Source: Promethearchaeota archaeon
GTDB lineage: Archaea; Asgardarchaeota; Lokiarchaeia; Sigyniarchaeales; SOKP01
Direction: 5' to 3'
NCBI GenBank assembly: GCA_048940645.1
Contig: JBHLOI010000003.1
Span: 55,498 to 119,497 of the forward strand
Length of the DNA: 64,000 nucleotides
Part shown: one piece after another, positions 4,225-56,327 of the stretch
How positions within the stretch are numbered: position 1 is the stretch's first letter
Layout: every line of letters begins with the position of its first letter
The notes under the pieces: generated by a model
Databases searched by the model: none
Told to the model about the DNA's origin: nothing
Seen by the model: only the letters and a program-made list of their open reading frames with translations
Made by a program: the position numbers and the translations under genes

Positions 4225-5298
4225 TTAGATTACTGAATAATTAAAGAGGATTGGTTGGTCTTTTAAGTCATTTAATAACAATTCTGTATGAAATAAATAT
4301 TGATTTAAAGAGATTTCTTGATTTTTATATCTTCTAATTAGTGTTTTAATTATGTAGAATGGAGAAAACTTCAAGAATCGAATATCAGAAAATAAATAGA
4401 CCATACCTTTTGCTTCAAATATAATTTTTTTATCCATCAGCTCATCAAATAGATCCTGTCGATTATTTAATAAACTTAAACAATCATTTACAGAAAGATT
4501 TGTATTTCTCAAATTTTTTATTAAAAGATATACATCTTTATCAACTAGAAAATTGATTATTGCCTTATTCTCTAACTCTTGGCTACAATTATACTTTGAA
4601 TAGAACTTAATAAATTCTTTTTTATATTTTTTTAGGACACGCTCTTCTATATTTTCCTCATCCGGAATCCTTTTGGGAGGGACTCTTGCGCATGTAAAAT
4701 CCTTGATTAAAAAATAACATTCTTTACTACCTGGAATACTCCTCTTTAAAATTAAATTTTCTCGAAGAAATGATATTAAAAGTAAATCAATATTTACTGT
4801 AGAAAATCCATATTCTTGTCTTAATAAGTTCGTTAATTCTGTTTTGGAAATTACTCCATTTCTTAATATTTGTAAAATTGTGAATTTAATTTTATCTTGG
4901 AAAAAATTTATCAAATCTTCACTTTCCAATTTGTTATAATTCTTTATTGTGTTAAATGCCTCAGAAATAGCTCTAGTCATTTTATTGGTGTTCATTAACT
5001 CAATCAGATTTTTACCAATAATAGCTAAAATATCAGGAGATATAAGATTCTGTTTCTCTATTTTACCACTCAAAACAAGAACTAAAAAATAGATTTCACT
5101 TTCGAATTCTTGCAATATAGAAATGAAATAATTATTCTGATCTTCTATTTCTATCAAAGAATTTTCTTTATCTAGTTCATGTTGAGCCCAAATTTTTAAA
5201 AATAAATCTTTTTTTGGGAATTCTTTTTCTGGGGGATATTGGATTAACGGCTCGGGTCCAGTGCTTTTATTCCAATGAACAATGATTAATCTTTCCAT
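4225..5298 (-). CDS. Longin/uDENN-like protein with C-terminal winged-helix-like regions
   Basis: N-terminal LIIVHWNKSTGPEPLIQYP matches the longin/uDENN strand-GP-strand-YP pattern; ILQILRNGVISKTELTNLL is wHTH-like. Confidence 0.65.
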   Translation of the reverse strand: MERLIIVHWNKSTGPEPLIQYPPEKEFPKKDLFLKIWAQHELDKENSLIEIEDQNNYFISILQEFESEIYFLVLVLSGKIEKQNLISPDILAIIGKNLIELMNTNKMTRAISEAFNTIKNYNKLESEDLINFFQDKIKFTILQILRNGVISKTELTNLLRQEYGFSTVNIDLLLISFLRENLILKRSIPGSKECYFLIKDFTCARVPPKRIPDEENIEERVLKKYKKEFIKFYSKYNCSQELENKAIINFLVDKDVYLLIKNLRNTNLSVNDCLSLLNNRQDLFDELMDKKIIFEAKGMVYLFSDIRFLKFSPFYIIKTLIRRYKNQEISLNQYLFHTELLLNDLKDQPILFNYSVI

Positions 5299-5443
5299 AA
5301 TTCCAATGTTTAAATATCTAAAATTAAGACCTATTGACCAATTTATAGAGAAATAATAATTTATCCAATATATTATTAAAAGTAGATTATATAATTAAGG
5401 CTATTGTTTAGCTTGAATTGAAAGTAAAGAAGATTTTTTGAAT

Positions 5444-5695
5444 TTAAAAAAATTTAGGAAAATTATACTCAATATTTTCTAATGCTTCAATAAGAAGATC
5501 ATTTATTCTATTATCATCTGAAAAATCTATTTTATTAAATACATTTTCAATCATTTGGTTTGCAAGTTGTTTATCTTTTTCTGTGGGATGATTTTTCCTA
5601 GAATTAAATAAAAATTCAAATTCTTCTTTTAACCATTCTAATTCCTCAATTAGAGAATCTTCCAAAAGATCATCATAATCCCCGCAGTAAAACAA
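5444..5695 (-). CDS. Small acidic helical hypothetical protein
   Basis: 83-aa ORF with TTG start preceded by purine-rich GGTAGGGG. Confidence 0.65.
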   Translation of the reverse strand: MFYCGDYDDLLEDSLIEELEWLKEEFEFLFNSRKNHPTEKDKQLANQMIENVFNKIDFSDDNRINDLLIEALENIEYNFPKFF

Positions 5696-5809
5696 ATAAA
5701 TACCCCTACCCTAATTATTATTTATAATATTTAAAATAATACTCTAAGAAACTAGTAGGGTCCGACTATAAATATTTTAGTTTTCCAAAAAATGAAATGA
5801 CAAAAATAT

Positions 5810-5983
5810 TTAATCATATATTTTTTTAAATTGATATCTTGTAATTGTTTTAGAAAGTTCCCAAATTGACTGAAGATCATTTGAGCTAATCGCATTCGTT
5901 AAATCTTTATATAATTTTGATAAGTATGATTGATCATATTCAATGATCTCTGTTTTACTAAATATTTTATCCTGTTTACTCAT
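5810..5983 (-). CDS. Small hypothetical protein (57 aa), not in the ORF track
   Basis: ATG...TAA, MSKQDKIFSKTEIIEYDQSYLSKLYKDLTNAISSNDLQSIWELSKTITRYQFKKIYD; same strand as neighbours and fills an intergenic gap. Confidence 0.55.
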   Translation of the reverse strand: MSKQDKIFSKTEIIEYDQSYLSKLYKDLTNAISSNDLQSIWELSKTITRYQFKKIYD

Positions 5984-6162
5984 ATAGCAAATTCAAATTG
6001 AAAAAGTAAAAAATGGGAATAATATCCCGGTAATATATGTTCGATAAAGACAGGTTTGAAGCTTTTTATTATTCAATTTTATGGTAAATTAATTCAAATG
6101 ATTTTTCAACATCAATCTTTTTCAATAACAGAAATACAATAGTACTTTATCACCAGGAAAAT

Positions 6163-7017
6163 TTAAGTAGATAAACTTTGTTCTTTTTTCTTTTTTTCCC
6201 AAAATCTGCTATAAAAATAAAATGATATAAATCCAATAATTAAAATAGCAACGATAATTAACAAGATAATATTAAAAAGGTTTGCTTGAGCCTGAAACTG
6301 AGCTGGATCAAGTGCATTAAGATCATATGGTGGTCCTGGAATTTCGCCTAAAAAGAAATCTCCAAGCCAAGCATAAAAAAAAGCTCGAGCAATCGACCCT
6401 AGAAAAGTACCTAATGAATATTTTTTTATATCCATATCTACTAATCCAGAAGCGTATGAAACGGGGTCAAAAGGAATAATAGGTATAAAACGAAAAATCA
6501 ATATGGCCCATATTCCATATTTATGAATAAAATCATCCGCCATATTAAGAGCTCTATCACCAACAAATTTTCTGGCCAATGGGCGCCCTCCCTTCCTACT
6601 AAGATAATAGCATAATAATCCTGCACCTAGTGATCCAATTATTCCCATTATAGCCCCACCGAAAGTTCCATATATTAAACCAGCTGCTATAAGTATAACT
6701 TCTGAAGGAAGAGGTACGATAATTCCTTGTATTGCCATAACTAATATAAATAAAAATATGCCTATAATTTCCAATGAAGCAATGGGATTTACTATCCACT
6801 CGACAACAAATCTATACAAAATTGTATCGTCTATGAAAATCATGTAAATTAGCAAATAAACAGTTATAGCCATTATTGCTATAAATACAATGATATAAAA
6901 GATAGTTTTCCGATCAAAATTAGAAAAATCAATGAGATTTTTAAAATATTTTTTTATTTTGGTTGAGAATGTATCTTTTTTATGGTTATTATTATCTTGA
7001 ATATTCATATCTCTCAA
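6163..7017 (-). CDS. DedA/TVP38/TMEM64 (VTT domain) membrane protein
   Basis: PLPSEVILIAAGLIYG and RFIPIIPFDPVSYASG motifs. Confidence 0.92.
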   Translation of the reverse strand: MRDMNIQDNNNHKKDTFSTKIKKYFKNLIDFSNFDRKTIFYIIVFIAIMAITVYLLIYMIFIDDTILYRFVVEWIVNPIASLEIIGIFLFILVMAIQGIIVPLPSEVILIAAGLIYGTFGGAIMGIIGSLGAGLLCYYLSRKGGRPLARKFVGDRALNMADDFIHKYGIWAILIFRFIPIIPFDPVSYASGLVDMDIKKYSLGTFLGSIARAFFYAWLGDFFLGEIPGPPYDLNALDPAQFQAQANLFNIILLIIVAILIIGFISFYFYSRFWEKKKKEQSLST

Positions 7018-7122
7018 AAATGCATGTTAAATCTTGAAGTAATATTAGTAATTTAAATTTCTATAAAAATTATTTTTTTTATTATTTCACATAGAAATAG
7101 AATTAATTCTTGGAAAGATCAT

Positions 7123-7164
7123 TTTAAAGAATGAATTTATTTATTTAAAGAATGAATTTATTTA
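7123..7164. repeat. Perfect 21-bp tandem duplication in a divergent intergenic region
   Basis: TTTAAAGAATGAATTTATTTA at 7123-7143 and 7144-7164. Confidence 0.85.
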
Positions 7165-7225
7165 TAACAATTATTAAATAGATTATTGACTAATAACAAA
7201 TAAAAATAAAAATCAATGACTTTAG

Positions 7226-8020
7226 ATGGAATTATCAAAATCTATTAAATTATTAATTATCGTTTTACTTATCTGGATAGTCCTTGCTACTTTATTCGGT
7301 TTATATGATTTGGAAATCTCTATTTCTTTAGTTAATGAACAATCAAATTGGGGTAATTTTGGAGCGGATTATGGAGAAGTTCCGGGCTATGCTTTAATTG
7401 CAATAGCACTAGCAACATGGTTAGGAAGTTACATTAAAAATGTTAAAAAGCAGAAAACCTTAATTATTTTAGCTGTTATCACTGGTGTAATTTATCTTAT
7501 ACTTGGAATTTTTGATTATGATAATACAGATATATCTCTTGGAATTAGTTTAATTATACTGCCTTTAATATATTTAATTACTACATGGAATACAGATTGG
7601 AGAAAATATAGAAAAATTGCGTCAATAATATCTATTTTGGCTATAATTAACCCTTTATTACTGGTACAATTGATAAAATTATTTTGGGGGAGAGTACGAT
7701 TTAGAGATCTTGCCATAGATTATATAAACTTCACACCGTGGTTTATTCCACGTGGGATAACGGGTAATTTTAGTTTCCCCAGTGGTCATGCAGCAATGGG
7801 GTGGATGTTTTTACCCCTTCTTATAATTGTTAAAAATAAAGAAATCAAATTTCCATTAAAATTAATATTACTTTTAGGAATAATAGGTTGGGGGATGTTT
7901 GTTGCTTTGTCCAGAGTTATTGTAGGGGCACATTATGCCTCTGATGTCCTATTTTCTTCTGCATTTGCTGCTGTTTTAACAAATTTATTATACAGAAAAA
8001 TCTACTTAAGGAAGATCTAA
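7226..8020 (+). CDS. PAP2-family membrane phosphatase
   Basis: KLFWGRVR, SFPSGH and SRVIVGAHYASD motifs with TM helices. Confidence 0.92.
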   Translation: MELSKSIKLLIIVLLIWIVLATLFGLYDLEISISLVNEQSNWGNFGADYGEVPGYALIAIALATWLGSYIKNVKKQKTLIILAVITGVIYLILGIFDYDNTDISLGISLIILPLIYLITTWNTDWRKYRKIASIISILAIINPLLLVQLIKLFWGRVRFRDLAIDYINFTPWFIPRGITGNFSFPSGHAAMGWMFLPLLIIVKNKEIKFPLKLILLLGIIGWGMFVALSRVIVGAHYASDVLFSSAFAAVLTNLLYRKIYLRKI

Positions 8021-16798: not shown

Positions 16799-17533
16799 AT
16801 GAATTCAGAACCAAACTTTAATGATTTAGAAATTGACTTAACAAAATTAATTGAAAAAGAAATAAATGAGAAACATGGTATTCTTGGAATCTCAGTATCT
16901 TCACATGGAGGAACCCATCTTGCGAGTAAATTTAAAAAAGAGATTAAAATGACCAAAACAGAAATATCTGCTGCGAGTAGTAGTATGGTCTTTCTTTCCT
17001 CAAAGATTTTAACCGATTCTTTAAACCAAAAAATATCATATAATTTAATCACTGGAAAGGAGAGAATAATAGTTTCAATTTTAACTGAAAATGTTGCTCT
17101 AATGGCATATCTAAATAGGGAATTAGCTGAACTTGAAGGATTAGATTCATATATAAATTCCCTAAAAATCTTTGCCATTCAACTATCTGCAATCATAGAT
17201 ACTTCTGACCTAATTAAAGAAGAAATATTTGTTGCGGTAAAAAGAGCTATACCAAATGCGTTAGTGATTGCAATAATAACCAAAGATGGTTTACCAATTA
17301 AAATTCAATCAACTATGCCTGAACCAATACTTTCTGCAATGACTTCTGCAATATATAATTTAGCAGGTATTCTATTGGGGGGAGGTTTAGAATACTCCAT
17401 AATTGGAGGCGAGAATGGTTCTATTATAATTCATGAATTAGATGAAACCAGAATTCTTGCAATTGCTGTACCAGAAGCGGATGAAAGAAAATTAGGATCC
17501 TATATAGCAAAAATTAAATCATTAATTAAATAA
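16799..17533 (+). CDS. Tandem (double) roadblock/LC7 domain protein
   Basis: Two ~120-aa units: GISVSSHGGTHLAS...ISAASSSM and AIITKDGLPI...LSAMTSAI...GENG. Confidence 0.85.
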   Translation: MNSEPNFNDLEIDLTKLIEKEINEKHGILGISVSSHGGTHLASKFKKEIKMTKTEISAASSSMVFLSSKILTDSLNQKISYNLITGKERIIVSILTENVALMAYLNRELAELEGLDSYINSLKIFAIQLSAIIDTSDLIKEEIFVAVKRAIPNALVIAIITKDGLPIKIQSTMPEPILSAMTSAIYNLAGILLGGGLEYSIIGGENGSIIIHELDETRILAIAVPEADERKLGSYIAKIKSLIK

Positions 17534-17542
17534 AATTAAAAT

Positions 17543-18790
17543 TCAAGAGATAATCTTAATTATCCCATCAACTATCTTTAATGCTCCAAAAAAAGATTCA
17601 GAAAAGGATTTTGCGCTAAATAAGATGGAGCATACAGGTTCTCCCTTAACCATATTCTTAATTGGTTCGCTTTTATCTTGAATAAACTTAAGATTGTTTA
17701 TTTTTTCAATTTTATCTATTGGAACTTCTTTAGGTGCGAAAAAAATTAGCTTAGTTACATATTTCTTACAAATCTGATTATTCAATATCTCAATAATTTC
17801 ATTCCACTTCTCTTGATTAAAACTTTTAACATGTAAATCTAATAAATTTATATTCATAGAATCCTCTGAAGCCCTTATGGAGCCAGGAATTCTTGGATTA
17901 ATTTCCATTAAATAAGGATAATGATTTCTTAACACAAAATCAAATCCGTTAATCCCTCTTAATCCTAATATATTCGTGAGCAAGATTGAAATCTCAGAGA
18001 TCAATTTATTATCTTCATTTAATAAGTTTCCTGGAACGATATTTCCACAATACATGAATTGTTTAGGTGGATTAACATACTCTAAACCAATAATTTGACG
18101 GTTAATAGTTATGACTTTAGTTTCAGTCCCATTAGAAATTGTGGTACAACTAACTGGTATTCCCTCAATATACTCTTGAATCAACCAATTTGAAGAGTTA
18201 TAACCTTTAAATTCTAATTTCTTAATTAGAAAGGTTAACTGCTCTTTATTCTCAATTTTAAATACATTTATTCCTCCAGAACTCTTTATCTTTTTCAAGA
18301 TGAAAGGGTGTGCTAAAGATTTATTTAATTTTTCAAATTTCTTTAATTCATAGCTAATTGGAACTTTATATCCCAAATTATTTAGAGTATGATAAATTTT
18401 AGAAATATTTCTGGCATTTTCCATGACACTCATATTATTATTAAGGCTTTTAGTACCATCTTTTTTTTTTTTAATTTTATCAAGAATATATTTACGTTCT
18501 TCTAAATGATCATCCATACCACTAGCAATAATCAAATTTTCTATATCAGGATATTTATTTAATAAATCAATTGTATAGTGAGCCAAAAATTGTTGATAAT
18601 TATTTTTAATTGAACTATATCTCGCTTTTAATTCTTTCGTTATAATTATAGAATCTTTAACGTAGGGATATAAATCTAAATCTCCAAAAAAGTCAACAAC
18701 ATATACATCATATCCTGCTTTATTTAAAGAATAAGCAAGAGGACGTGTATTAAAACCAACAACTAAAACAGAGTTCTTTTTTCCTTCCAT
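17543..18790 (-). CDS. Archaeal ATP-grasp protein (COG2232-like)
   Basis: GFNTRPLA, DFFGDLD, SSGG, QEYIEG, GINGFDF, EINPR. Confidence 0.85.
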   Translation of the reverse strand: MEGKKNSVLVVGFNTRPLAYSLNKAGYDVYVVDFFGDLDLYPYVKDSIIITKELKARYSSIKNNYQQFLAHYTIDLLNKYPDIENLIIASGMDDHLEERKYILDKIKKKKDGTKSLNNNMSVMENARNISKIYHTLNNLGYKVPISYELKKFEKLNKSLAHPFILKKIKSSGGINVFKIENKEQLTFLIKKLEFKGYNSSNWLIQEYIEGIPVSCTTISNGTETKVITINRQIIGLEYVNPPKQFMYCGNIVPGNLLNEDNKLISEISILLTNILGLRGINGFDFVLRNHYPYLMEINPRIPGSIRASEDSMNINLLDLHVKSFNQEKWNEIIEILNNQICKKYVTKLIFFAPKEVPIDKIEKINNLKFIQDKSEPIKNMVKGEPVCSILFSAKSFSESFFGALKIVDGIIKIIS

Positions 18791-18833
18791 TAAATTATAA
18801 ATAATTTTTGAGTTTAAAGAAATTTTTTCAAAT

Positions 18834-21038
18834 TCATAGAATTCTTTTTAATTCTAAAATCAAATTTTCTGGATTGTATCGGTCGAATTGAAATATCTGA
18901 GCTTTACCAAATTTTTTAAAATTTTTTTTTATTTTATCTGCAGCGTAAGTATTAACCCCTAAAGCTTGGGTGGCGTAACTTTTTTTAGGTTCTAAAACAA
19001 CAACATGAACTCCTTTTTTTGAGAGTACTTTAGTTAACTCTTTTAGCTCCTTGATGATTAGTGTATAATCAGTTTGTATTTGGGCGACTAAATCGGGATA
19101 TTTTACAGAGATATTTGATCCACAATCTGAACATATAAAAATAACAGGAATAACATTTCTATTCTTTAACTTTTCAGCATTAATTAACTTAACACACTTT
19201 TTTAGTGCAGCTGCCATGGGAGTATATGATTTTCCTTCAATACTTTTTAGTTTATTAAGAGCGTTTTTAAAATAAACTGTTGGTTTTTGAAGAACGATTG
19301 CTTCTTTACCTCTAAATATAATTAAACTGATTTTATCTCTTTTTCTATATCCTTCCTTATGCAAGGATAAAATTACATCTGTCATCTGTTTTATCACATA
19401 ATACATTGATGCAGAACTATCGAGCACAAAAAAAAGTAAAAGAGGTGCACGATATTCGAAGATTTTATCCATTAAATCATACTTATTGAATTTTATAGGA
19501 AATTCTATATCTGTTTGATTGTATATTGTGTTTTTCAAATAGTTTCTTATAGTTGCATCCAAAGCTAAACTCTTTGGTTTATCTATTGGGTTTCGATAAG
19601 AAATATATTTCCCTTTTTGAGAAGATGCTATTTTAATTCGCCTTCCTATACCACGACCCCCATAATTTGAAACTTTTCGTTCTTTTCGGATATTATCAAG
19701 AACGGAATTCATTTTTTGTTCCATTTTATAAATTAATGGCAATTCCTCAGTTTGGTTTTCAAAAAATTTTAGATCCATCTCTTCAAAAGGAATATTTTTT
19801 ACTTTCCAGCCTCCTGCAGGAGCAGGACTCCTTTTTTTGTTATCAGGGTATTTAGGTGGAGGCAATTTTTGTTCTTTAGTCTCCGGCATTTTGACTTTTC
19901 TAGGATCTACTGATTGTCGTTTGAATTCTTTATGCAATGTATCATCCTGTTTTAATGGTCCTTCCGAATCAGGATTAGGCTTATAAGCATTTGGATCCTC
20001 ATATGCTTTTTGTATTTTTCCATAAACTTCTGCAATTTTAGCTTGGATTTCTTTGGGAGTCATCTCATAATGAAGCGACTGAATTCTATGTTCGAAAACT
20101 AAATCCAAAGCTACATTCAAATCTTCCTCTGTAATTTGTGTTCTACTATTAAAAGCAGCATGAGCTCTAGCACAGCGTATGAAGGTTATATCTGCTCTTT
20201 GAGAAAATATCTCTAATTCATTAACAATCATAGATACAAATTCAAAAACAGATGACGGCACTTTTACTTCTTTTAGTATTTCTCTCGCTTTTTTGATCTT
20301 ATCTCGAAGTTCTTCCTCTTCCTTTACGTATTTCTTAATAAATGTCTTTGGGTCATCATCAAATTTGATAACTCGTCTGGTTATTTCTGCTCTTAATTTT
20401 GGATCTCTTGGTGCTTTTATTTTAACCTCCAAACCAAGACGATCAGCAATTTGGGGTCTTAATTCACCCTCTTCAGGATTCATTGAACCCACTAAAACGA
20501 ATCGGGATGGATGCATAACAGAGATTCCTTCTCTTTCAATGATATTTACACCGGAAGCAGCTGCATCTAAGAGAGTATCAACTATATGATCCTGTAGAAG
20601 ATTAATTTCATCAATGTAAAGAATCCCGCGATTTGCTTTTGCTAATAACCCTGGATGAAGACTTTTAATACCTTCAGTGAGTACTTTATCGATAGAGAGA
20701 CTACCACAAACCATATCCTCTGTAATTCCTAATGGGAGGTTTACGAGTCTCATTTCACGAGTATGGATTTCTATTTCTCGTTTTCCTTTCTTTATACGAC
20801 ATTCTTCACATAAATCTTCATTTTCTAAGTGAGGATCACATGAGAATGGACAATCCTTTACAACTTCAATCTCAGGCATAACTTCAACAAGGCTTCTCAC
20901 GGCTGTTGATTTTCCTGTGCCTTGTTGTCCTGATAATAATATTCCACCAATTTGTGGGTCAATAACGTTTAGTATAAGCCCCAATTTCATTTTTTCTTGT
21001 CCTAAAATAGCTACGAAAGGAAAGGATGAAATTTTCAT
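18834..21038 (-). CDS. ChlI/ChlD-like chelatase subunit (AAA+ ATPase, Pro-rich linker, vWA)
   Basis: FPFVAILGQEKMK, GQQGTGKST, DEINLL, MNPEEGELRPQ; vWA MIDAS DSSAS. Confidence 0.9.
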   Translation of the reverse strand: MKISSFPFVAILGQEKMKLGLILNVIDPQIGGILLSGQQGTGKSTAVRSLVEVMPEIEVVKDCPFSCDPHLENEDLCEECRIKKGKREIEIHTREMRLVNLPLGITEDMVCGSLSIDKVLTEGIKSLHPGLLAKANRGILYIDEINLLQDHIVDTLLDAAASGVNIIEREGISVMHPSRFVLVGSMNPEEGELRPQIADRLGLEVKIKAPRDPKLRAEITRRVIKFDDDPKTFIKKYVKEEEELRDKIKKAREILKEVKVPSSVFEFVSMIVNELEIFSQRADITFIRCARAHAAFNSRTQITEEDLNVALDLVFEHRIQSLHYEMTPKEIQAKIAEVYGKIQKAYEDPNAYKPNPDSEGPLKQDDTLHKEFKRQSVDPRKVKMPETKEQKLPPPKYPDNKKRSPAPAGGWKVKNIPFEEMDLKFFENQTEELPLIYKMEQKMNSVLDNIRKERKVSNYGGRGIGRRIKIASSQKGKYISYRNPIDKPKSLALDATIRNYLKNTIYNQTDIEFPIKFNKYDLMDKIFEYRAPLLLFFVLDSSASMYYVIKQMTDVILSLHKEGYRKRDKISLIIFRGKEAIVLQKPTVYFKNALNKLKSIEGKSYTPMAAALKKCVKLINAEKLKNRNVIPVIFICSDCGSNISVKYPDLVAQIQTDYTLIIKELKELTKVLSKKGVHVVVLEPKKSYATQALGVNTYAADKIKKNFKKFGKAQIFQFDRYNPENLILELKRIL

Positions 21039-21179: not shown

Positions 21180-22130
21180 TTAAAATTTTTTAGATAATAT
21201 TGTTAGTTTTTCGTTGAGATTTGAAACACACTCATCCCATTCTGCCAAAATTTCTTTAATTTTTGGAATGATTAAGTCTCTTTCTTTAAATTCTAAATAA
21301 TCCATAAACTGTTTTATTTTCTCTATTTTTATGAAGGTTTCAGCCACATATTTCCGTATTTCACGATTTTGATTATCTAAAACTTCATGGATTCTATGAG
21401 ATTCTCCTTTACGCATCAATGTGGCTAAATATTCTTCAGTACCAAGCAATAATGAGTCTAATTGATTAATTTGGTTTTTTATAAATTTATCATATGTTTC
21501 TAAAATATTATCACTTGGGAAAAAGTTAGTAATATCAATAACAAATTTCTGTGCTTGTATTACTAATTCTTCCATGTTTTCAAATCCCTCAATTCTGTAT
21601 TCAACTTCATGAAATTTACTTCTCTCGTTATTTCCATCATCTAATCTGAAAATTTTAAAACCTGGATCGGCTTTTAACTGTCTTTCTGGATCCCCTTTTC
21701 TTTCTGGATATTCTACCTGTTTAACTAGACGTTCTGGATTAAATACTAAAGAAATAGCTAGGGGATTTAAACTTTGATATGCTACTGTAGTTTTTCTATC
21801 ACCAAATCCCGAAAGCATAACTCTAAAGCCCGGATGGCTATGCCACCAACCTATTACATAATCACCTTTATCAAAAGCTTCTTCTTCAATGATTACTGTT
21901 GAAGCATAATCTTCTTCTGACCAGACGTATTTATCAACTATCGCTTTGGGATCATAAATTTCATGCATAATTGGATATGCTTTTGAAATTAATACATCAT
22001 CATTTTGATTTTTGCCAATGAAAATCCCATTTGCTTCTATCCACTTATCTTTTGGTATTTTTTGATTCGCAAACCTCACGCTCGCAGCAATAATTGTTAA
22101 GTACGCCTGTTTAGGAATAATCACAGTCAT
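21180..22130 (-). CDS. MPN/JAB (JAMM) domain protein with helical C-terminus
   Basis: EANG and GWWHSHPGFRVMLSGFGD, followed by ~130 aa of amphipathic helix. Confidence 0.85.
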   Translation of the reverse strand: MTVIIPKQAYLTIIAASVRFANQKIPKDKWIEANGIFIGKNQNDDVLISKAYPIMHEIYDPKAIVDKYVWSEEDYASTVIIEEEAFDKGDYVIGWWHSHPGFRVMLSGFGDRKTTVAYQSLNPLAISLVFNPERLVKQVEYPERKGDPERQLKADPGFKIFRLDDGNNERSKFHEVEYRIEGFENMEELVIQAQKFVIDITNFFPSDNILETYDKFIKNQINQLDSLLLGTEEYLATLMRKGESHRIHEVLDNQNREIRKYVAETFIKIEKIKQFMDYLEFKERDLIIPKIKEILAEWDECVSNLNEKLTILSKKF

Positions 22131-22524
22131 GATTTATCTATTTTAAGTTAATGTTCATTCTTGATAATTTTATACCACTGCATATATTTATTTTTATTTT
22201 TTTCTTAAGAATCTTCCAAAATCAATAGGATTCCATTAATTTTCTATTATCATATCAATTCGCTCATAATTTCTGTTAAAAATTTATTTTACTTCTAGCC
22301 AGTCTTCAATATTAGAGAACTTAATCTATTGAAAATGATTAGTAGCTTGTAGGAGATCCAAGATATTAAAAAATAGTAAGAAATTATTAAATTATAATTC
22401 TATTAGCTCTTTTTCATTTAAAAGATAAAATTATTTATATTCATAATATACCATTATATTATTACTAAATGCAAATTATTACTGATTCCAATATAATTAA
22501 AATCATCTAAAAGAAAGGATTAAA

Positions 22525-23151
22525 ATGGCTGAAAAAGGTTTTGAACCACTAACAAGTCAACTGGGTATACCAGGGACTTCTTATAGGATTCAGCTGGGAT
22601 TAATTAATGGAAAATGGGCATCAAGACTATTGAAAGGACAAAATGTTATAGATTCATACATTTATAAGGATGAAGATATCGCTGAAGGGGGATTTCCTAA
22701 TCAAAATCTCATCGTAGGTTGGGTTTTACGTACTGTGGCAATTCCTAATATAAACCCACATCAAGTAATGAAAACAACTCAAGCTTTGGTGAAACAGGCA
22801 ATTGAAAAGAAAGAACAAAAGAAAGTCATGGCCCCCATACAAGAAATTAAAAAGGTTGAATTAGAAAAAGTCCCTGAAAGTGAAATAAAAAGACCTCAAT
22901 CGGTGGGATGGGTAAAACAGGAAGGTATTAAGTCAGTACAGGAATTAGAAGAAGAAAAACGCCAAGCCTTTAAAGAAAGAATGGTATATAAGAAACAAGA
23001 AGAAGCAAGAAAATCTGGAACAATCGCAACATCAAGAGAGTTACCTTCTATCCCTAAAGGTGAAGAAGCGCCATCAACATTCTGTCCTCATTGCGGAAAA
23101 GATTTAGATTGGAAATATTGTCCTTTTTGTGGGGGGAAACTTCCACATTAG
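22525..23151 (+). CDS. Hypothetical protein with charged linker and C-terminal double zinc ribbon
   Basis: Compact N-domain, E/K/P-rich linker, CPHCG...CPFCG. Confidence 0.8.
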   Translation: MAEKGFEPLTSQLGIPGTSYRIQLGLINGKWASRLLKGQNVIDSYIYKDEDIAEGGFPNQNLIVGWVLRTVAIPNINPHQVMKTTQALVKQAIEKKEQKKVMAPIQEIKKVELEKVPESEIKRPQSVGWVKQEGIKSVQELEEEKRQAFKERMVYKKQEEARKSGTIATSRELPSIPKGEEAPSTFCPHCGKDLDWKYCPFCGGKLPH

Positions 23152-23271
23152 GAGTAATTTTATAAAATTCTCTAAATTTATTTTTTGTAATACTATAAAT
23201 TAAATTATTCAGTTTTTAAATGAGATAAATTATAAATATGACAAAAATTAACTATATCTAAACGTAATAGA

Positions 23272-24744
23272 TTGAGTGATGAAGTAATGGGCAAGGATAC
23301 AGATACAAGTGTTGTTACCATTAAACCAATGGCCTATTATAAGATGTTAGTTCATGTTCTTAGATTTGGATCAAAAGCACAAGCCATTAACGAATACAAA
23401 GAAGTTATGGGGATGCTAATTGGTCATCTAGAGGGACAGGGTGAAATTAAAGACGTAATCATAGAAGATGTTGTACCTATAACACATGGAGGATCAATTG
23501 AAGTTAAGTTTTCTGCAGAACAGCTTGGTGCTTTTGGAGAAATTGATAGGCAAATCTGGGAACAACATGGTGAAGAGAATTGGTTTAGTGTTGGTTGGTA
23601 TCATAGTCACCCAAATCTGGGAATTTTCTTCTCGAGTACTGATATATTTAATCAGTTATTTTGGCAAGATAAAAATCCTAGCGGTCTAGGAATAGTATTT
23701 GATCACGCTTATTTGGAAAAACCTGGTGATTTAGGTTTTAAAGTTTATAGATTAGATGATCCTTCAAAAGGATTAAATTCAAAGTATTATGAAGTTAAAG
23801 CTATAGTAGAGCCACCAGATAGTTTTGAATTTTATGAGAAAATAGTTGATTTGGTAAATAAAATATACTCGAAGGAAGCTCCAATTCTTGAATTAAATGA
23901 AACTACTGATTTATTTGGTGATGTATTTTTTCCTGAACAGAAACAACTTGAAAGTAAAAAGCCTCAATTATCAGTGCAAGAATTGTTAAATAATTTAAAG
24001 AAAGGGTTTTCAACTTTTATAGATCTATCAATTGAACCTCTTATTGACATACTTAACCTTTGGAGCCAAGATATTGTAAAAAAGATGTTCTACAATAATA
24101 CACAAATGAGAAATGATTTAATTGAAATGAAAGAAAATCTAACCTCGGGCGTAAATGATCTCCAGAAGTCATTTAATTTCTCATTGCAAGACGATTTAAA
24201 GAAATTGGATTTCTATATTGATGATAAGCTTGATAAACTTGATGAAGGACTGAATAATATGGAAATAGTAATTCATCAGTTTAGAGAGAATCTTACACTA
24301 CAAATAAACCAATTAATTGAAAATACCTTTTTACAAAATGTTAATCAAATTATTGAAAACTTTGATAAGAATCTTGGAGATTTAGATGGAATAAATGAGA
24401 TGAATGAGATGGTTTTACAAACTTTAGAGCCAGAGTATGCTGAATTAGAAAAGTTATTTAATATCATCGATCCTACGAAAAGTAGAATAAAAGGCGCAGT
24501 AGAGGATAATCAAGAGATAATAATAAACAATTTTCGGAAAAAATTATCCAATATTCAAGATATTTTTTCAAATTTAGATAATGATTTAAAAAAACTCCTC
24601 TCAGATCTAAAAGCAGCTATATTAGTTCTCGAGGGTTCTAAAAGTCCTGTTCTAAACAAAATTGAAAAATTAGAGAATGAGAAAAAAAATCTTCATAATA
24701 CTATAAGAGAATTAAAGAATGAAATTAAAGAATTGAAGAAGTGA
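23272..24744 (+). CDS. Rpn11/CSN5-like MPN+ metalloprotease with long helical/coiled-coil tail
   Basis: YKMLVH, EVMGMLIG and intact JAMM GWYHSHPNLGIFFSSTD; ~270-aa amphipathic tail. Confidence 0.9.
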   Translation: MSDEVMGKDTDTSVVTIKPMAYYKMLVHVLRFGSKAQAINEYKEVMGMLIGHLEGQGEIKDVIIEDVVPITHGGSIEVKFSAEQLGAFGEIDRQIWEQHGEENWFSVGWYHSHPNLGIFFSSTDIFNQLFWQDKNPSGLGIVFDHAYLEKPGDLGFKVYRLDDPSKGLNSKYYEVKAIVEPPDSFEFYEKIVDLVNKIYSKEAPILELNETTDLFGDVFFPEQKQLESKKPQLSVQELLNNLKKGFSTFIDLSIEPLIDILNLWSQDIVKKMFYNNTQMRNDLIEMKENLTSGVNDLQKSFNFSLQDDLKKLDFYIDDKLDKLDEGLNNMEIVIHQFRENLTLQINQLIENTFLQNVNQIIENFDKNLGDLDGINEMNEMVLQTLEPEYAELEKLFNIIDPTKSRIKGAVEDNQEIIINNFRKKLSNIQDIFSNLDNDLKKLLSDLKAAILVLEGSKSPVLNKIEKLENEKKNLHNTIRELKNEIKELKK

Positions 24745-24756
24745 TAGTGAAATATT

Positions 24757-26157
24757 ATGATAAACACCCCTAACAATAATAAAGAAGAAAAGATCGAGAT
24801 TGCAGAAGATTGGAAAGTTTATATAAGAAATAATGCTTTTAGAAAAATGCTTAGTCATATAGTGAGGTTTGCTAATAAATCTTTGGAAGATAATCAAGAG
24901 GTCATGGGTATTTGTGTAGGTGAAGCAAATTCAGAAGACAAGACTTTAAATTTAATGAATATCATTCCTGTATGTCATGGAGATATCGTAGAACTTGGGT
25001 TTTCTCAAGAGATTCATGAAAAAATTATGAAAATTGAAGAAAAAATTCTTGCTACAAATTTAAAAATGATTGGGTGGTATCATTCGAGACTAAAAGGTGG
25101 TCTTTTCTTTTCTCACGCAGATAGGAGTAATCAATTATATTTTCAAAATGAGAACCACCCATATGGATTTGGAATTGTATTTGATAATAACCTCCTTAAT
25201 TCTGGAAATAAATTTGGATTTGAGATTTTTAGACTTAAAACCTTTTCAAAAGGAGTAGACAGTGAATACGTTAAAGTTCCTTTTGAACTTGAAGTACCTA
25301 ACACCTTAGACTTTTTCAAATGGATAAAAGCGCTTGTAGAAGATCTTCAGAGAAAAAATCCTATAATTATCAATGAATTTGATGAAATTAGAAAACCAAT
25401 GCCGGGAGAGCTTCAAGAAATCCCAAAAGTAGAAAAGGCCACCACTGAAGGCGGTGACGATGATTTTAATGCTCAAATACAACCAATATTCACGGGTTTT
25501 AGAGAGGGAACTTCACAATTTGTAGAAACTTTTATTGATGCCTATAAAAACCAATTAAGTAATTGGATGATTGATGTTAGAAATGGTTCATTAAGAGGCG
25601 TTGAGCAGATTAGAAGCATTATAAAACAGATGAAAGATTCTTTCGAACAAGGTTTAGAAAATATTCAAAATTACTTTGATAAAAGTTTTTCTGAAATTTC
25701 AAATGTATTTATCACAGATATTTCAGAATATATTGATAGAAGAGTTGAGACCCAAAAAGAGTTTACAACCAAAGTTTCAGATTTATTCGAAGAAATTTCT
25801 GATAAAATGCAATCTATAATAGAAAATAATTTAAAAGAATTTACTGATAAGTTAAAAGAAAAAATATCATATGAAGAAGTAAAACTATATAATATTAATC
25901 AAACAAATACTAAGATAAAACCTTTACTTAATAAATCCTCAGATTTATTAATTAAAACATATAATAATACAAATGCTCTTTCTGATGATCTCTTAAAAGA
26001 AATTAAAAGCCTAAGTTCAAGGTTTAGTTTAAACTTAAATGAAGAAATTGAAAATCTAAATTTAGATTCTGATCCAATTAAAGAAAAATATAAAGAAATC
26101 GAAGAATTAATTGAACGGCTCCAAAAAGTCATCTCAGACTTTAGGCAATTAAAATAA
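24757..26157 (+). CDS. MPN domain paralogue with degenerate JAMM (probable MPN-) and long helical tail
   Basis: EVMG retained but GWYHSRLKGGLFFSHAD has Arg for the second His (CAT TCG AGA at 25081-25089); tail alignable to the upstream paralogue. Confidence 0.85.
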   Translation: MINTPNNNKEEKIEIAEDWKVYIRNNAFRKMLSHIVRFANKSLEDNQEVMGICVGEANSEDKTLNLMNIIPVCHGDIVELGFSQEIHEKIMKIEEKILATNLKMIGWYHSRLKGGLFFSHADRSNQLYFQNENHPYGFGIVFDNNLLNSGNKFGFEIFRLKTFSKGVDSEYVKVPFELEVPNTLDFFKWIKALVEDLQRKNPIIINEFDEIRKPMPGELQEIPKVEKATTEGGDDDFNAQIQPIFTGFREGTSQFVETFIDAYKNQLSNWMIDVRNGSLRGVEQIRSIIKQMKDSFEQGLENIQNYFDKSFSEISNVFITDISEYIDRRVETQKEFTTKVSDLFEEISDKMQSIIENNLKEFTDKLKEKISYEEVKLYNINQTNTKIKPLLNKSSDLLIKTYNNTNALSDDLLKEIKSLSSRFSLNLNEEIENLNLDSDPIKEKYKEIEELIERLQKVISDFRQLK

Positions 26158-26195: not shown

Positions 26196-26510
26196 TTAGA
26201 AAAATTCTAATGAAGATACAGAGGATATATTTAATTTATACTTAGGGATATTAGTATTGAGTCTTTTTAATTGGTTTCTTTTTGCTATATTACTTAATAT
26301 CCTTCCAATTCTATCAACTCTAATATCAATTCCATAATTTTCTTTCAAAACAGAATTAATTTTATAAGAAGAAAGTATAACTACTTCTGAAATGTTTTTT
26401 TCACATAGCCTTTCAATTGCTTGTTTCACTAATTTTAAGATTGTTTCTTTATTAGGTTGATTCTCCATGCTCATATTAATATTATATTTGAAGATTTTTA
26501 AAATTTTCAT
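26196..26510 (-). CDS. Small basic winged-helix-like hypothetical protein (start may be at MSMENQ)
   Basis: LSSYKINSVLKENYGIDIRVDRIGRILSNIAK...PKYKL. Confidence 0.6.
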   Translation of the reverse strand: MKILKIFKYNINMSMENQPNKETILKLVKQAIERLCEKNISEVVILSSYKINSVLKENYGIDIRVDRIGRILSNIAKRNQLKRLNTNIPKYKLNISSVSSLEFF

Positions 26511-26648: not shown

Positions 26649-28970
26649 ATGAAATCTAATAATCTATTATCCAAAATAAGAAGAATTTTAAAAACAGTTT
26701 ATCAAAAGGTTATTCTTAAAGAGATTTATATGGAGGGAAAGCAGCCTCCAAAATCATATGCATTTAATAAAAAGTTTATAGGAATCTATGCACTTTTTTT
26801 TTCAATTTCTTTAATACTTTTAATAGCAATGAATATATCTGATATTACTTTTTCCTTGCTTTTTGAGCAACTTTTTATTGTTGGAAATGTTATTGTCGCT
26901 TTATTCATTTTTCTATCTCTTTTTTTTAGCAGTGATAAGCTCAGAAATTTTATTTTTGAGAAGCATAGCGGTATTAAACAACTAATAATCTATTTAGGGG
27001 CAGGAATTGGATTTTATTTCCTCTTTCGTACGCTATTTTTATTTAAAGTGAATTTAATGACTTATCTGTTTTTTTTATCAACAGTTTGGTTAATTTTATT
27101 AAGTACGAGGTTTTATATGTATTCTAGAAAGTTTGCAACGAAATTAGAAGCCAAATTTATAGCAAAGTATTCGCTTACTAGACGTTTCTTAGCAGGAATC
27201 TCTCCTTATTTTATTTTAGGTTTATTAATTGTACTAGCCTTATTTTATCGTCTTGTTCTGGTGTTTATTTCTTTAGATTTTTTTGGACCCTTTGATCCTC
27301 AAGGTGCAGTTGTGGTATATCAAATAGAAATGCGAATAGTAATGCCATTAATTTATTTCAGTCTTATTATGACACTTTTATTTATTATTTTTGAGTTTAT
27401 TTTTACCCGCAGAAAGGCAGAAACTAAAAGGGCTGGGTTATTTGACAATTATACATTTTCTTTAATTGTATTTTTTATCTTTTTTTTTCAGATCTTTCAG
27501 ATTACTATCTTTTTATTATTAAGACCAGAAACAATTAGTGCTTTAAAAGCTACGGTAGGTGCTACTAGCTCGACTGTATCCTTTATTTTTATTTTTGAGT
27601 TTTCAATTTCTATGTTTTTTCTATACAGGGTTATAAAAAAGTTAGGTAAGTCTCTAGGTTGGCAGATATTTTTATTTAAAAGAGATGGATTGATCCTACT
27701 AATCTTGGGGTGTGTTATAGCTCAAACTTTAACCCGTTTTGGCTTAGAAGCTCAAATTTCGAACCAAGAGGTCAGTATTATTGGGAATTTCTTAATGTAT
27801 GATAAGTATATTATATCTATTATAATGATCATCTTTCTTGGAGCAACTTTATTGGTTTATTATCTAAAACCGCAATCAACCTCAATGTTCATTAGACTCC
27901 AAAAAGAAACTGTTGATGAAGAACAAGAAAAATTAGAAATCATATATAAACTCTTAAAGAGTGAATATATAAGAAGAGGTGAAGCTTATCCTGTTGAAAT
28001 TTTAGATCGCGAATTGATAAAAGCAACAAAACTTCCTAAAAACACATTATATTCTCTTATCAAGGAGTTAGTTGACAGCGATATGGATATAATTATAAGA
28101 AACATAAAAGATGATTATGGTATTACTCAAAAATTTATTGATTTTGTATCTATCACCGAAAAATTTGATAAAAAAGAAGTTGCACAGAAAAAAGCAAAAT
28201 CTTATTTATCTCAGAGATTATACGAAACGATGACTAAAAAATCTCCTGATTTATTCAAATTAAATAGAGATTTAGAATCAGATAAAGCTTCGGATCTCTT
28301 TATGTCTTCACTTACAAACACTTATAGCAAAAAACTAAAAGATGAAAGACTTAGAAAGAAAAAACAGCAAGAAACAGTTATATCTTTTACTGAAAAAGAA
28401 ATTACAGAATCTTTAAAAGAACTAATCATTGGAATATTAAAAAAAGAATATATTTATCGGATTGAAAATAACGAAAAGTATCCTGATTTTCATTTTTCTA
28501 TCTCTGAAATAGCATCAATAGTTCAAATGGAAACAAAGATCACTCCAGGAGAACTTTATCCAATTTTAGAAAATTTAAATACAGATGACATTGAGTTAAA
28601 ACTCTTAAAGAATAGTCATGACCCAGAAGATAAAATAATTAAATTTTTTCCTATTGCAGATGAAGCACTTATGTATTCATTAGCCAATTTTAGACCTAAT
28701 GAATTTAACAAGGTGAAAATTGAAATAATAAATCAATTTGTCAAATTTCTCAAAAGGAAGAAAACTAGAGCAGGTATTTCTAAATTGAAAAGGGGAGTAG
28801 GAAAAAATACAGAAGAACAGCGTTTATGGGATAAAATATTAAATAGTTTATATCATTATTATCCTCTTTATACTGAAGTGCAAGAAAAGATTCAAGCTGG
28901 AGAAGAAATATCAAAAGTTTTTAAAATGTTTCCAGAAAAAGATATTGACATCTTTAGTAGTGAATCCTAA
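26649..28970 (+). CDS. Polytopic membrane protein (about 11-12 TM) with a large cytoplasmic domain containing two winged-helix-like repeats
   Basis: Hydrophobic residues ~40-405; repeats IIYKLLKSEYIRR...TKLPKNTLYSLIKEL and IIGILKKEYIYR...TKITPGELYPILENL. Confidence 0.7.
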   Translation: MKSNNLLSKIRRILKTVYQKVILKEIYMEGKQPPKSYAFNKKFIGIYALFFSISLILLIAMNISDITFSLLFEQLFIVGNVIVALFIFLSLFFSSDKLRNFIFEKHSGIKQLIIYLGAGIGFYFLFRTLFLFKVNLMTYLFFLSTVWLILLSTRFYMYSRKFATKLEAKFIAKYSLTRRFLAGISPYFILGLLIVLALFYRLVLVFISLDFFGPFDPQGAVVVYQIEMRIVMPLIYFSLIMTLLFIIFEFIFTRRKAETKRAGLFDNYTFSLIVFFIFFFQIFQITIFLLLRPETISALKATVGATSSTVSFIFIFEFSISMFFLYRVIKKLGKSLGWQIFLFKRDGLILLILGCVIAQTLTRFGLEAQISNQEVSIIGNFLMYDKYIISIIMIIFLGATLLVYYLKPQSTSMFIRLQKETVDEEQEKLEIIYKLLKSEYIRRGEAYPVEILDRELIKATKLPKNTLYSLIKELVDSDMDIIIRNIKDDYGITQKFIDFVSITEKFDKKEVAQKKAKSYLSQRLYETMTKKSPDLFKLNRDLESDKASDLFMSSLTNTYSKKLKDERLRKKKQQETVISFTEKEITESLKELIIGILKKEYIYRIENNEKYPDFHFSISEIASIVQMETKITPGELYPILENLNTDDIELKLLKNSHDPEDKIIKFFPIADEALMYSLANFRPNEFNKVKIEIINQFVKFLKRKKTRAGISKLKRGVGKNTEEQRLWDKILNSLYHYYPLYTEVQEKIQAGEEISKVFKMFPEKDIDIFSSES

Positions 28971-55328: not shown

Positions 55329-56327
55329 TTACTCCTTATAGTGTTTTGTAAGTGTTTTTATTGTTTCCTCCATATCTTTTAAGGCTTTTTTTCTTTCTTT
55401 TGGAGTCATAGTATAAAAATCTTCTTCCAAATTGACGCCAATCTTTTGAGATTCTGCTATAGGCTTGAATTTCTTATAGACTAAAGCATTTATGTAACGT
55501 TCATAATGACTTAATGCTTTATTTAAGTCTGGATTATCTTTAATGGTGTTCCATAATTCTAAGGTTTCCAGCGATCTTATTCCCACATCTAATCGAAACC
55601 AACTAATTGGAAATAGGATTTTTTTCTTTATTCCATACTCAATGATTTTAATATTTTCTTCATCAATATAGAGCTCAGGTAATTCATCCTTAATAAAAAC
55701 TATATTATCACTCATGATATAGAGGTTAGCAGCATTTCTAGAAGTACAAACTATTCCCACAGCGAAACCTTTTGCTAATCGTAATTTATTTATTAAATCC
55801 TCTAAACTTGATCCTTTTAGGTGCACATTATCCTTTTTAGTCCCTTGAAACTCAATCTTTATTTTTCTTACTCCTTCTTCATCCAGAATGTTTGGGAAGA
55901 GTTCTTTTTCTCTAGATGTTTTATGAGCCTCCATTAATTTATTTATAATTTTATAATCTAATTTTAAACTGGGGATAACCGAAACATTTGCATCTAGAAA
56001 GGCATCTACTTCAAAATCAGCAATACCATAAAATATCTTGCTGTTGTTTATTATTTGATAAATTGTTTTGATAATTGCATCATTTAAAGCATCAGGATCT
56101 TCTCGAATCGAATCAAATTCTGTAGTTGTAAACGTATCTATTTGATCTTCCAATCCTTTTTCTTCATAAAAAGCAGCCCATGACATTTCTGTGTAAATTA
56201 AGCCTTCATTATAGAAATTATGGTCACTATCAATACTCACAATTAATTTTGAGCCCCCAATATCCACACCTTTCCTACTTCCGGAAGCTAAAATTGCAGA
56301 GGGAGGATTAAAGAAATCTAATGACAA
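55329..56327 (-). CDS. Hypothetical protein
   Basis: 332-aa ORF with no family recognised. Confidence 0.8.
   Translation of the reverse strand: MSLDFFNPPSAILASGSRKGVDIGGSKLIVSIDSDHNFYNEGLIYTEMSWAAFYEEKGLEDQIDTFTTTEFDSIREDPDALNDAIIKTIYQIINNSKIFYGIADFEVDAFLDANVSVIPSLKLDYKIINKLMEAHKTSREKELFPNILDEEGVRKIKIEFQGTKKDNVHLKGSSLEDLINKLRLAKGFAVGIVCTSRNAANLYIMSDNIVFIKDELPELYIDEENIKIIEYGIKKKILFPISWFRLDVGIRSLETLELWNTIKDNPDLNKALSHYERYINALVYKKFKPIAESQKIGVNLEEDFYTMTPKERKKALKDMEETIKTLTKHYKE

Follow-up and report, generated by a model that had tools for sequence, protein, structure and literature searches.

A tandem pair of tailed JAMM proteins in one Lokiarchaeial family as a candidate parallel to the eukaryotic MPN+/MPN- design

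Nearly all JAMM deubiquitinases of eukaryotes consist of an active MPN+ protein that is held by a dead MPN- partner, and we know of no account of how this asymmetry originated. A locus of a Promethearchaeota archaeon (GenBank assembly GCA_048940645.1, contig JBHLOI010000003.1) raises the question whether a forerunner of this design exists in archaea. Within the stretch of 64,000 nucleotides that was analysed (the window; positions 55,498 to 119,497 of the contig, AT-rich with about 28% G+C) the genes for three MPN proteins, here called A, B and C, and for a zinc-ribbon protein, Z, lie together at 21180-26157. A first-pass annotation made from the sequence alone had proposed the adjacent B and C as an Asgard forerunner of Rpn11-Rpn8, CSN5-CSN6 and BRCC36-Abraxas. 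On balance we favour another explanation, according to which the Z-B-C operon of one Lokiarchaeial family probably encodes a stalked JAMM metallo-isopeptidase complex that is parallel (convergent) to the eukaryotic MPN+/MPN- design and not its ancestor. Literature on archaeal Rpn11-like JAMMs exists (PMC6043591, PMC5654768), and a literature search found no paper on a tailed MPN+/MPN- pair in Asgard archaea. What we file as new here is the putative parallel and still ongoing evolution of such a pair with unusually long stalks of fixed length.

The four open reading frames (ORFs) were confirmed, and all three MPN proteins scored above the cut-off of Pfam JAB (PF01398), with 45.7 bits for B and 50.7 bits for C (see Table 1 for A). 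B carries the complete JAMM motif E...HxH-x7-S-x2-D, formed by E44 within EVMG and the segment HSHPNLGIFFSSTD. Its five residues (E/H/H/S/D) were unbroken in 120 of 120 database orthologues and in all 56 genome copies that could be scored. This invariant site argues for catalysis by B, whose characterised close relatives are all isopeptidases of ubiquitin or ubiquitin-like proteins (Ubl). The nearest solved relatives by sequence are the Caldiarchaeum Rpn11-like enzyme, Rpn11, CSN5 and BRCC36, and the best 150 of 568 representatives for the MPN domain of B all matched with E < 2e-15. The AlphaFold2 model of B (mean predicted local distance difference test score, pLDDT, of 75) comprises the MPN domain (residues 1-193), a low-confidence linker (194-237) and a single continuous helix (231-484); despite the low model confidence the linker contains a motif, ELNE..F..P, that is invariant among the orthologues. 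In a Foldseek search with this model BRCC36 of BRCA1-A/BRISC ranked first (E 5e-11, ~300 columns including the helix), followed by Rpn11, CSN5 and eIF3h, the matches to Rpn11, BRCC36 and CSN5 ranging from E 1e-9 to 5e-11. The ATG at 23287 (MGKDTD) is the more likely start codon of B than the TTG at 23272, because the orthologues of B have 485 aa.

The gene for C begins 12 bp after the stop codon of B, and its product reads EHRSD at the five JAMM positions: the second His, a zinc ligand, is replaced by Arg and the motif is incomplete. The Arg codon, AGA, is two changes away from the nearest His codon. The HSR of C recurs in 20 distinct protein clusters (≥65% identity) of other assemblies, all of them within the clade of the window, and since these separate clusters share it, it is no sequencing error. 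Of the 91 orthologues of C from the database, 47 have the catalytic Glu exchanged for Gln, 20 carry HSR, four have Leu instead of the first His and two show EHRTA; in 16 the site was intact. In addition, a genome-derived set of 57 B-C pairs was compiled, covering nine genera of the family of the window and three other families. Here C was intact in 16 copies and showed 17 distinct five-residue states, including QHHSD, EHRSD, E[ILV]HTD, ESHSE, ELHSG, E[IL]RTT and ECNAH. At least one lesion, most commonly the E-to-Q exchange, was thus present in 75 of the 91 database orthologues and in 41 of the 57 genome copies, with fold, length and tail retained. The first-pass annotation had stressed HSR and would have taken orthologues with HSH as a sign of a lineage-specific or sequencing change. 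Most C orthologues do keep HSH, yet the majority of these lack the catalytic Glu or are altered at another JAMM position; HSR itself belongs to one clade, and the proposed combination of an enzyme and a degenerate paralogue stands.

B and C share 27% identity over ~400 residues (E 5e-39), and this alignment includes the tails and covers the tail segment quoted in the first-pass annotation, which had rightly described C as a full-length paralogue of B. The likeness of A to B is confined to the MPN domain (E 8e-14). In trees that take in the B and C families and were rooted with B, the two are reciprocally monophyletic (SH-aLRT, the Shimodaira-Hasegawa-like approximate likelihood ratio test, 99), and the duplication is older than the split of the families. 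Both the basal C lineages and the C lineages of a second family (f2) of the same Lokiarchaeial order have an intact JAMM site, and the lesions fall into about 12 phylogenetically separate clades that are flanked by intact or otherwise damaged relatives. Unconstrained parsimony on C requires at least 6 changes between intact and lesioned, and 18 for the full state. These trees indicate that the ancestral C had an intact JAMM site and that the lesions arose separately inside the family. Furthermore, the MPN domain has evolved about twice as fast in C as in B (mean distance 1.04 vs 0.54), and C is kept in every searched genome of the window's family (f1). The fast MPN domain and the scattered lesions mark C as a paralogue that appears to be under relaxed constraint at the catalytic site while the protein itself is retained.

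The distribution was surveyed in 301 Asgard genomes at a threshold of E 1e-20. A full-length B with an adjoining C was present in 68 of 68 f1 genomes, in agreement with the synteny that had been anticipated, and in 3 of 7 f2 genomes; the pair also occurs in one genome (G026) of a third family of the order (f3). Matches at this threshold also came from two further families of the class, those listed being to the MPN domain alone, and from one genome outside it; no B-C match at E 1e-20 was obtained in the about 225 remaining Asgard genomes sampled. The MPN genes of other families of the class are single and differently built. Among the genomes sampled, the tandem B-C pair was found only in one Lokiarchaeial order, and in every genome carrying them the two genes stay tandem and near-abutting. 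In almost every f1 genome, and across nine genera, Z is the gene directly upstream of B; Z-B-C is a family-wide operon. The head-to-head arrangement of A and Z is kept in f1 genera and in three f2 genera (g5, g8, g9), including genomes with B-C elsewhere. A|Z is an older divergent pair than Z-B-C, and it follows that the family of the window joined two modules, A|Z and B-C. In three genomes (L018, G016:C10; L021, G024:C4; G223:C21) 2-5 kb of extra DNA separates Z and B. NCBI names place near-identical homologues (74-96% identity) in Odin-, Thor-, Heimdall-, Hod- and Hermodarchaeota (P0002-P0008, P0214-P0220). These phylum labels were left out of the distribution analysis because they are at odds with the genome-based survey, which suggests that the labels are unreliable in one data set of metagenome-assembled genomes.

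A heteromeric, deubiquitinase-like complex built on a long helical bundle had been proposed by the first-pass annotation, and the tails bear on this proposal. In all 57 genomes and four families the C tail measures 215-223 residues, mostly 221, whereas the B tail varies from 221 to 330 residues and is 221-222 residues long in the most distant family, which suggests an ancestral tail length fixed at about 221. Tail lengths of B and C do not covary in this set (Spearman 0.14, p 0.30), because the C tail does not vary. The hydrophobic periodicity of the tails is 3.6-3.67, with a power 6-9 times that of shuffled sequences, as compared to 3.5 for a classical heptad. Apolipoprotein A-IV (E 8e-7) and further bundles of amphipathic helices are also among the matches of the C-family profile. 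When pairwise distances were compared by partial correlation, B tail and C tail gave 0.63 (permutation p 0.001) and B head and C head 0.54, compared to 0.22 and -0.01 across domains; this domain-specific pattern is suggestive of B-C pairing. A complex prediction with full-length B and C, for which our own alignments were used so that the calibration counts hold roughly, gave a score of 0.44 (best of three controls 0.00), with at least 72% contact agreement between runs and a partner pLDDT of at least 69. In the calibration, 58 of 80 solved complexes passed, as did 2 of 110 mismatched pairs; passing scores of 0.60 or below belonged to 7 of the solved set of 80 and to both of these mismatches. 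Together, this weak pass and the domain-specific rate correlation make a B-C heteromer plausible, and to this extent the earlier proposal holds.

As to the substrate, genes for ubiquitin-like proteins, E1 and E2 occupy three loci of the genome. Those on C80 and C60 each have a small JAMM of their own, and the third is a further E1/E2 pair on C121. Ubiquitin-type substrates therefore exist in this organism, and ubiquitin-like conjugates would be the substrate of B-C. The genome has seven JAB-domain genes in total, two small ones lying within the Ub/E1/E2 loci. JAB genes outside the cluster are found at C40:25470-25823, C69:26017-26361, C60:20082-20408 and C80:17293-17631, and two larger JAB frames (531 aa and 417 aa) may belong to the 'N-extension plus MPN' type of other Lokiarchaeia.

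Taken as a mechanism, the favoured explanation runs as follows. B would be the catalytic MPN+ subunit, and C would have arisen from it through a tandem duplication that predates the split between the families of the order. C would then have been retained as the structural partner of B, which would make its own active site dispensable and let it decay independently in many lineages, in the clade of the window through the His-to-Arg change at the second zinc ligand. The heads of B and C are predicted to pair head-to-head, as in Rpn11-Rpn8, and the two homologous amphipathic tails of ~220 residues may pair as well, forming a long bundle or stalk whose length is fixed. Z and A, the latter a third conserved MPN+ protein, would be probable accessory or targeting components. 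The substrate would be an isopeptide- or peptide-linked ubiquitin-like modifier, a choice made on account of the ubiquitin, E1 and E2 loci of the genome. Of all this, the order and paralogy of the genes, their motif states, the phylogeny and the distribution are observed; the heterodimer, its catalysis, its substrate and the parts played by Z and A are inferences.

Several observations weigh against this explanation. The full JAMM motif is present in 16 of the 57 C copies, so that C may be active in some lineages, and the S-to-T variants of C may also be active. The rate correlation can be inflated, since both tails evolve fast, are near saturation and share a non-linear relation to time. A score of 0.44 falls in a range where, unless the prior is good, a pass is more likely to be false than true, and the pass may come from the model's memory of solved MPN heterodimers. 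The periodicity of 3.6-3.67 and the weak apolipoprotein-type matches fit surface-binding amphipathic helices equally well as a coiled coil. Finally, genes for ubiquitin, E1 or E2 are absent from the vicinity of the A/Z/B/C cluster.

A comparison of the pair with known systems bears on the question of ancestry. In BRCC36-Abraxas and BRCC36-KIAA0157 (ABRO1), the core of BRCA1-A and BRISC, an MPN+ enzyme is combined, as proposed for B-C, with an MPN- pseudo-enzyme, each MPN domain being followed by a helix that pairs with the partner, and BRCC36 is both the best fold match to B and the best sequence match to C. Nevertheless, the tails have ~50 residues there as compared to ~220-250 in B and C, the partner is a distant MPN- protein whereas C is a close paralogue with a partly and variably degenerate site, BRCC45- or MERIT40-like genes do not accompany B-C, and the origin of B-C in one archaeal order would be independent. 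Rpn11-Rpn8 and CSN5-CSN6 are MPN+/MPN- heterodimers with one catalytic subunit, the design that is proposed for B-C, and both Rpn11 and CSN5 rank among the top matches of B by sequence and by fold. However, the window has no PCI-domain partner, B and C have no C-terminal domain of the MitMem_reg or CSN5_C type, and the two short helices that join a multi-subunit bundle there contrast with the long stalk predicted here; orthology is unsupported. The closest archaeal counterpart is the Rpn11-like JAMM of Caldiarchaeum, CsRpn11 (PDB 6FJV), the best sequence match to the MPN domain of B (E 1.9e-8). CsRpn11 is a small stand-alone enzyme, a monomer in solution, and is encoded with Ub, E1, E2 and RING genes (PMC6043591). 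B and C differ from it in being tailed, paired and unlinked to conjugation genes, the operon-linked JAMMs of this genome being those on C80 and C60.

That B-C is the orthologous forerunner of Rpn11-Rpn8, CSN5-CSN6 or BRCC36-Abraxas would account for the shared architecture of an MPN+ next to an MPN- protein with C-terminal helices, for the top rank of Rpn11, CSN5 and BRCC36 among the sequence and fold matches and for the Asgard host. Such an ancestry is nonetheless highly improbable and was already disfavoured by the phylogeny, in which B and C are sister clades with a homologous tail that is absent from eukaryotic MPN proteins. The ancestral C and several living C proteins are, judged by their motifs, MPN+, the lesions having arisen within the family; the pair was found in f1, f2 and f3 and was not recovered at E 1e-20 from about 225 genomes of other Asgard classes, and the other families of the class have single, differently built MPN genes. 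Furthermore, the C-family profile matched MPN+ enzymes in the PDB, and the best 60 of its 219 matches included no MPN- protein (Rpn8, CSN6, Abraxas or eIF3f/h). The sister relationship of B and C, the intact ancestral C and the distribution in one order thus argue for a parallel invention, and the forerunner proposal of the first-pass annotation was dropped.

B and C could also act without forming a heterodimer, each alone or as a homo-oligomer, with C as a scaffold or a non-catalytic binder of ubiquitin-like proteins and as an enzyme where its motif is intact. JAMM Glu mutants still hold zinc, so that C proteins with the commonest lesion, E-to-Q, would do so too and could serve as binders; the 16 of 57 copies with all five JAMM residues and the weak pass in complex prediction agree with separate action as well. 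The archaeal JAMMs studied to date are monomers or loose dimers (PMC6043591). We nevertheless judge separate action unlikely, as the tandem, near-abutting genes are kept together wherever they are present, the rate correlations are specific for head-head and tail-tail, and the loss of catalysis with retention of the gene and of an invariant tail length is what would be expected of an obligate partner. Somewhat less likely again is a complex outside the ubiquitin system, in which the MPN heads act on another substrate or as a scaffold and the hendecad-like tails rest on the surface of a membrane or lipid, alongside a 773-aa membrane protein encoded 3′ of C. The periodicity of the tails, the apolipoprotein A-IV match, the position of the membrane protein across f1 genera and in G039, and the Ub, E1 and E2 loci that lie outside this neighbourhood and have their own JAMMs would all suit it. 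However, apolipoprotein-type matches are typical for any long amphipathic helix, conserved gene order in a single family says little about function, the strict JAMM conservation of B speaks for catalysis, and its close characterised relatives are all isopeptidases of ubiquitin or Ubl. A bolder version of the favoured explanation would unite A, Z, B, C and the 773-aa membrane protein in one Asgard-specific, membrane-anchored deubiquitinase, whose hendecad-type stalk of 221 residues (~30 nm extended) would space the sole active JAMM head from the membrane and whose Z N-domain, elsewhere fused to a Ras-family GTPase, would give regulated targeting; we regard this as improbable.

A was correctly described in the first-pass annotation as a divergent MPN protein with HSH. 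In the window it reads HSHPGFRVMLSGFGD, with S-x3-D spacing, and in its orthologues from four families the residues E, HxH, S/T and D are present and the spacing is the canonical S-x2-D, the extra residue being limited to the window and its closest relative. A single full-length orthologue of A is present in 83 of 91 genomes of the order, and the best sequence match of A is again CsRpn11 (PDB 6FJV, E 4.2e-7). In one genome (G241:C9:20019-20994, L031) the A orthologue is split into two ORFs directly after HSHPGF (residues 1-~103 and ~102-315, ~25 nt gap). The same split was seen in five more genomes of genus g12 (G267, G220, G217, G293, G089) and may reflect recoding, a pseudogene or a frameshift common to these genomes.

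Z showed only weak matches to Pfam zinc ribbons in its C-terminal part, and protein atlas searches with Z returned only its own zinc-ribbon cluster. It has 545 homologues (the best 120 of 545 at 68-96% identity), across which its N-domain is extremely conserved at about 70% identity, its linker contains the short invariant motifs GWVK and R.LP.IP, and AlphaFold2 modelled residues 1-100 with a pLDDT of about 90. For the fold of the N-domain, Foldseek found no PDB match at E ≤0.001 (best 0.064). A wide structure search gave a designed protein as the best hit (Z-score 6.3), which is within background, and no fold was assigned. A copy of the N-domain (residues 5-128, 86% identical) opens a frame of 881 aa elsewhere in the same genome (G000:C112:18693-21325; L027 ~4694-7324). 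It is followed by a winged helix (HTH_24), a small GTPase of the Ras family (PF00071, E 4e-36), a CxxC..CxxC ribbon and an unassigned C-terminal part, the frame extending beyond the contig end. No ATG, GTG or TTG precedes the conserved FEPLSSQ of this frame (*ISIEVFEPL), and a non-canonical start is possible. The fusion appears to be a recent copy and hints at a targeting or regulatory module. Divergent from the GTPase gene lies one (L027:3414-4484, minus strand, G000:C112) for a protein of 356 aa that combines CDC48_N and CDC48_2 domains with a coiled coil and a zinc ribbon at the C-terminus; like Z, this protein is built of an N-domain, a linker and a ribbon.

Table 1 Features of the A/Z/B/C cluster and its downstream neighbours (window coordinates; an empty cell means that no entry is given)
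Feature	Position	Strand	Description
A	21180-22130	-	316-aa MPN protein with ~130-aa helical tail; divergent from Z; Pfam JAB 28.3 bits
A JAMM residues	E32; HSH..S..D at 21798-21842		one-residue insertion (SGFGD)
A-Z intergenic region	22131-22524	.	394 bp, divergent; both promoters presumed here on the basis of the conserved A|Z head-to-head layout
Z	22525-23151	+	208 aa; N-domain 1-112, charged linker, C-terminal zinc ribbon
Z zinc ribbon	23083-23133		CPHCG...CPFCG
B	23287-24744 (ATG)	+	485 aa (490 aa if from TTG 23272); putative MPN+ subunit
B parts	helical tail 23977-24741		MPN domain ~190 aa; linker ~45 aa; helical tail ~250 aa
B JAMM residues	E44 (EVMG) codon 23401-23403; HSH..S..D at 23602-23643		HSHPNLGIFFSSTD
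C	24757-26157	+	466-aa paralogue of B with degenerate JAMM site; HSRLKGGLFFSHAD (HSR) at 25081-25122
C Arg codon	25087-25089		AGA
C helical tail	25492-26154		221 aa
Small ORF	26196-26510	-	104 aa; between C and the membrane protein; association with the pair possible
Polytopic membrane protein	26649-28970	+	773 aa; 3′ of C; association with the pair possible

The neighbours of the cluster encode a chelatase-like ATPase, an ATP-grasp enzyme, a membrane protein and an MFS-like transporter. Neither the 104-aa ORF nor the 773-aa membrane protein matched a Pfam or NCBIfam family. The former occupies the same position in all loci of the genus examined (66-91% identity). The latter lies 0.5-2.5 kb 3′ of C in the f1 genera where both were located and also 3′ of the pair in the f2 genome G039; in f2 genomes it is found tens to 150 kb away from A|Z. 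On the other side, at 17543-21038 (minus strand), a putative cobaltochelatase of the ChlI/ChlD-fusion type (TIGR02442, E 9e-177, below cut-off) and an ATP-grasp ligase are encoded 3′ of A throughout the genus and probably form a metabolic operon separate from the MPN genes. A link of A to AAA+ proteins (the ChlI/ChlD-type ATPase in f1, an AAA_5 protein in G030) was considered and rejected, as the likeness is 23% identity in the P-loop region only (E 6e-7), and the f1 ATPase was rejected as a part of the system on account of the TIGR02442 match. The gene at 16799-17533 (plus strand) encodes a protein of 244 aa that has a Roadblock/LC7 domain (PF03259, E 1.2e-6) at its C-terminal end and an N-terminal half without assignment. 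No neighbour in the window matched a PCI domain; PF01399-like matches of the genome lie on C123, C69, C77 and C76 and not on C54. The stretch is contained whole or partly in 20 DNA metagenome runs from sediment or mangrove, and no RNA runs containing it were listed.

If the favoured explanation holds, an Asgard lineage seems to have evolved the MPN+/MPN- design on its own, and the process would have been caught midway, with the partner still recognisable as a paralogue. About a dozen C lineages with different losses, next to others that are intact, would represent natural replicates for the question why a duplicate active site becomes dispensable. Handles for biochemistry, in a group that has cultured relatives, are offered by the stalk with its invariant length, by the Z domain with its extreme conservation and by A as a third MPN+ protein. 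For the interpretation of Asgard genomes the locus advises caution, as features that look eukaryote-like need not be ancestral.

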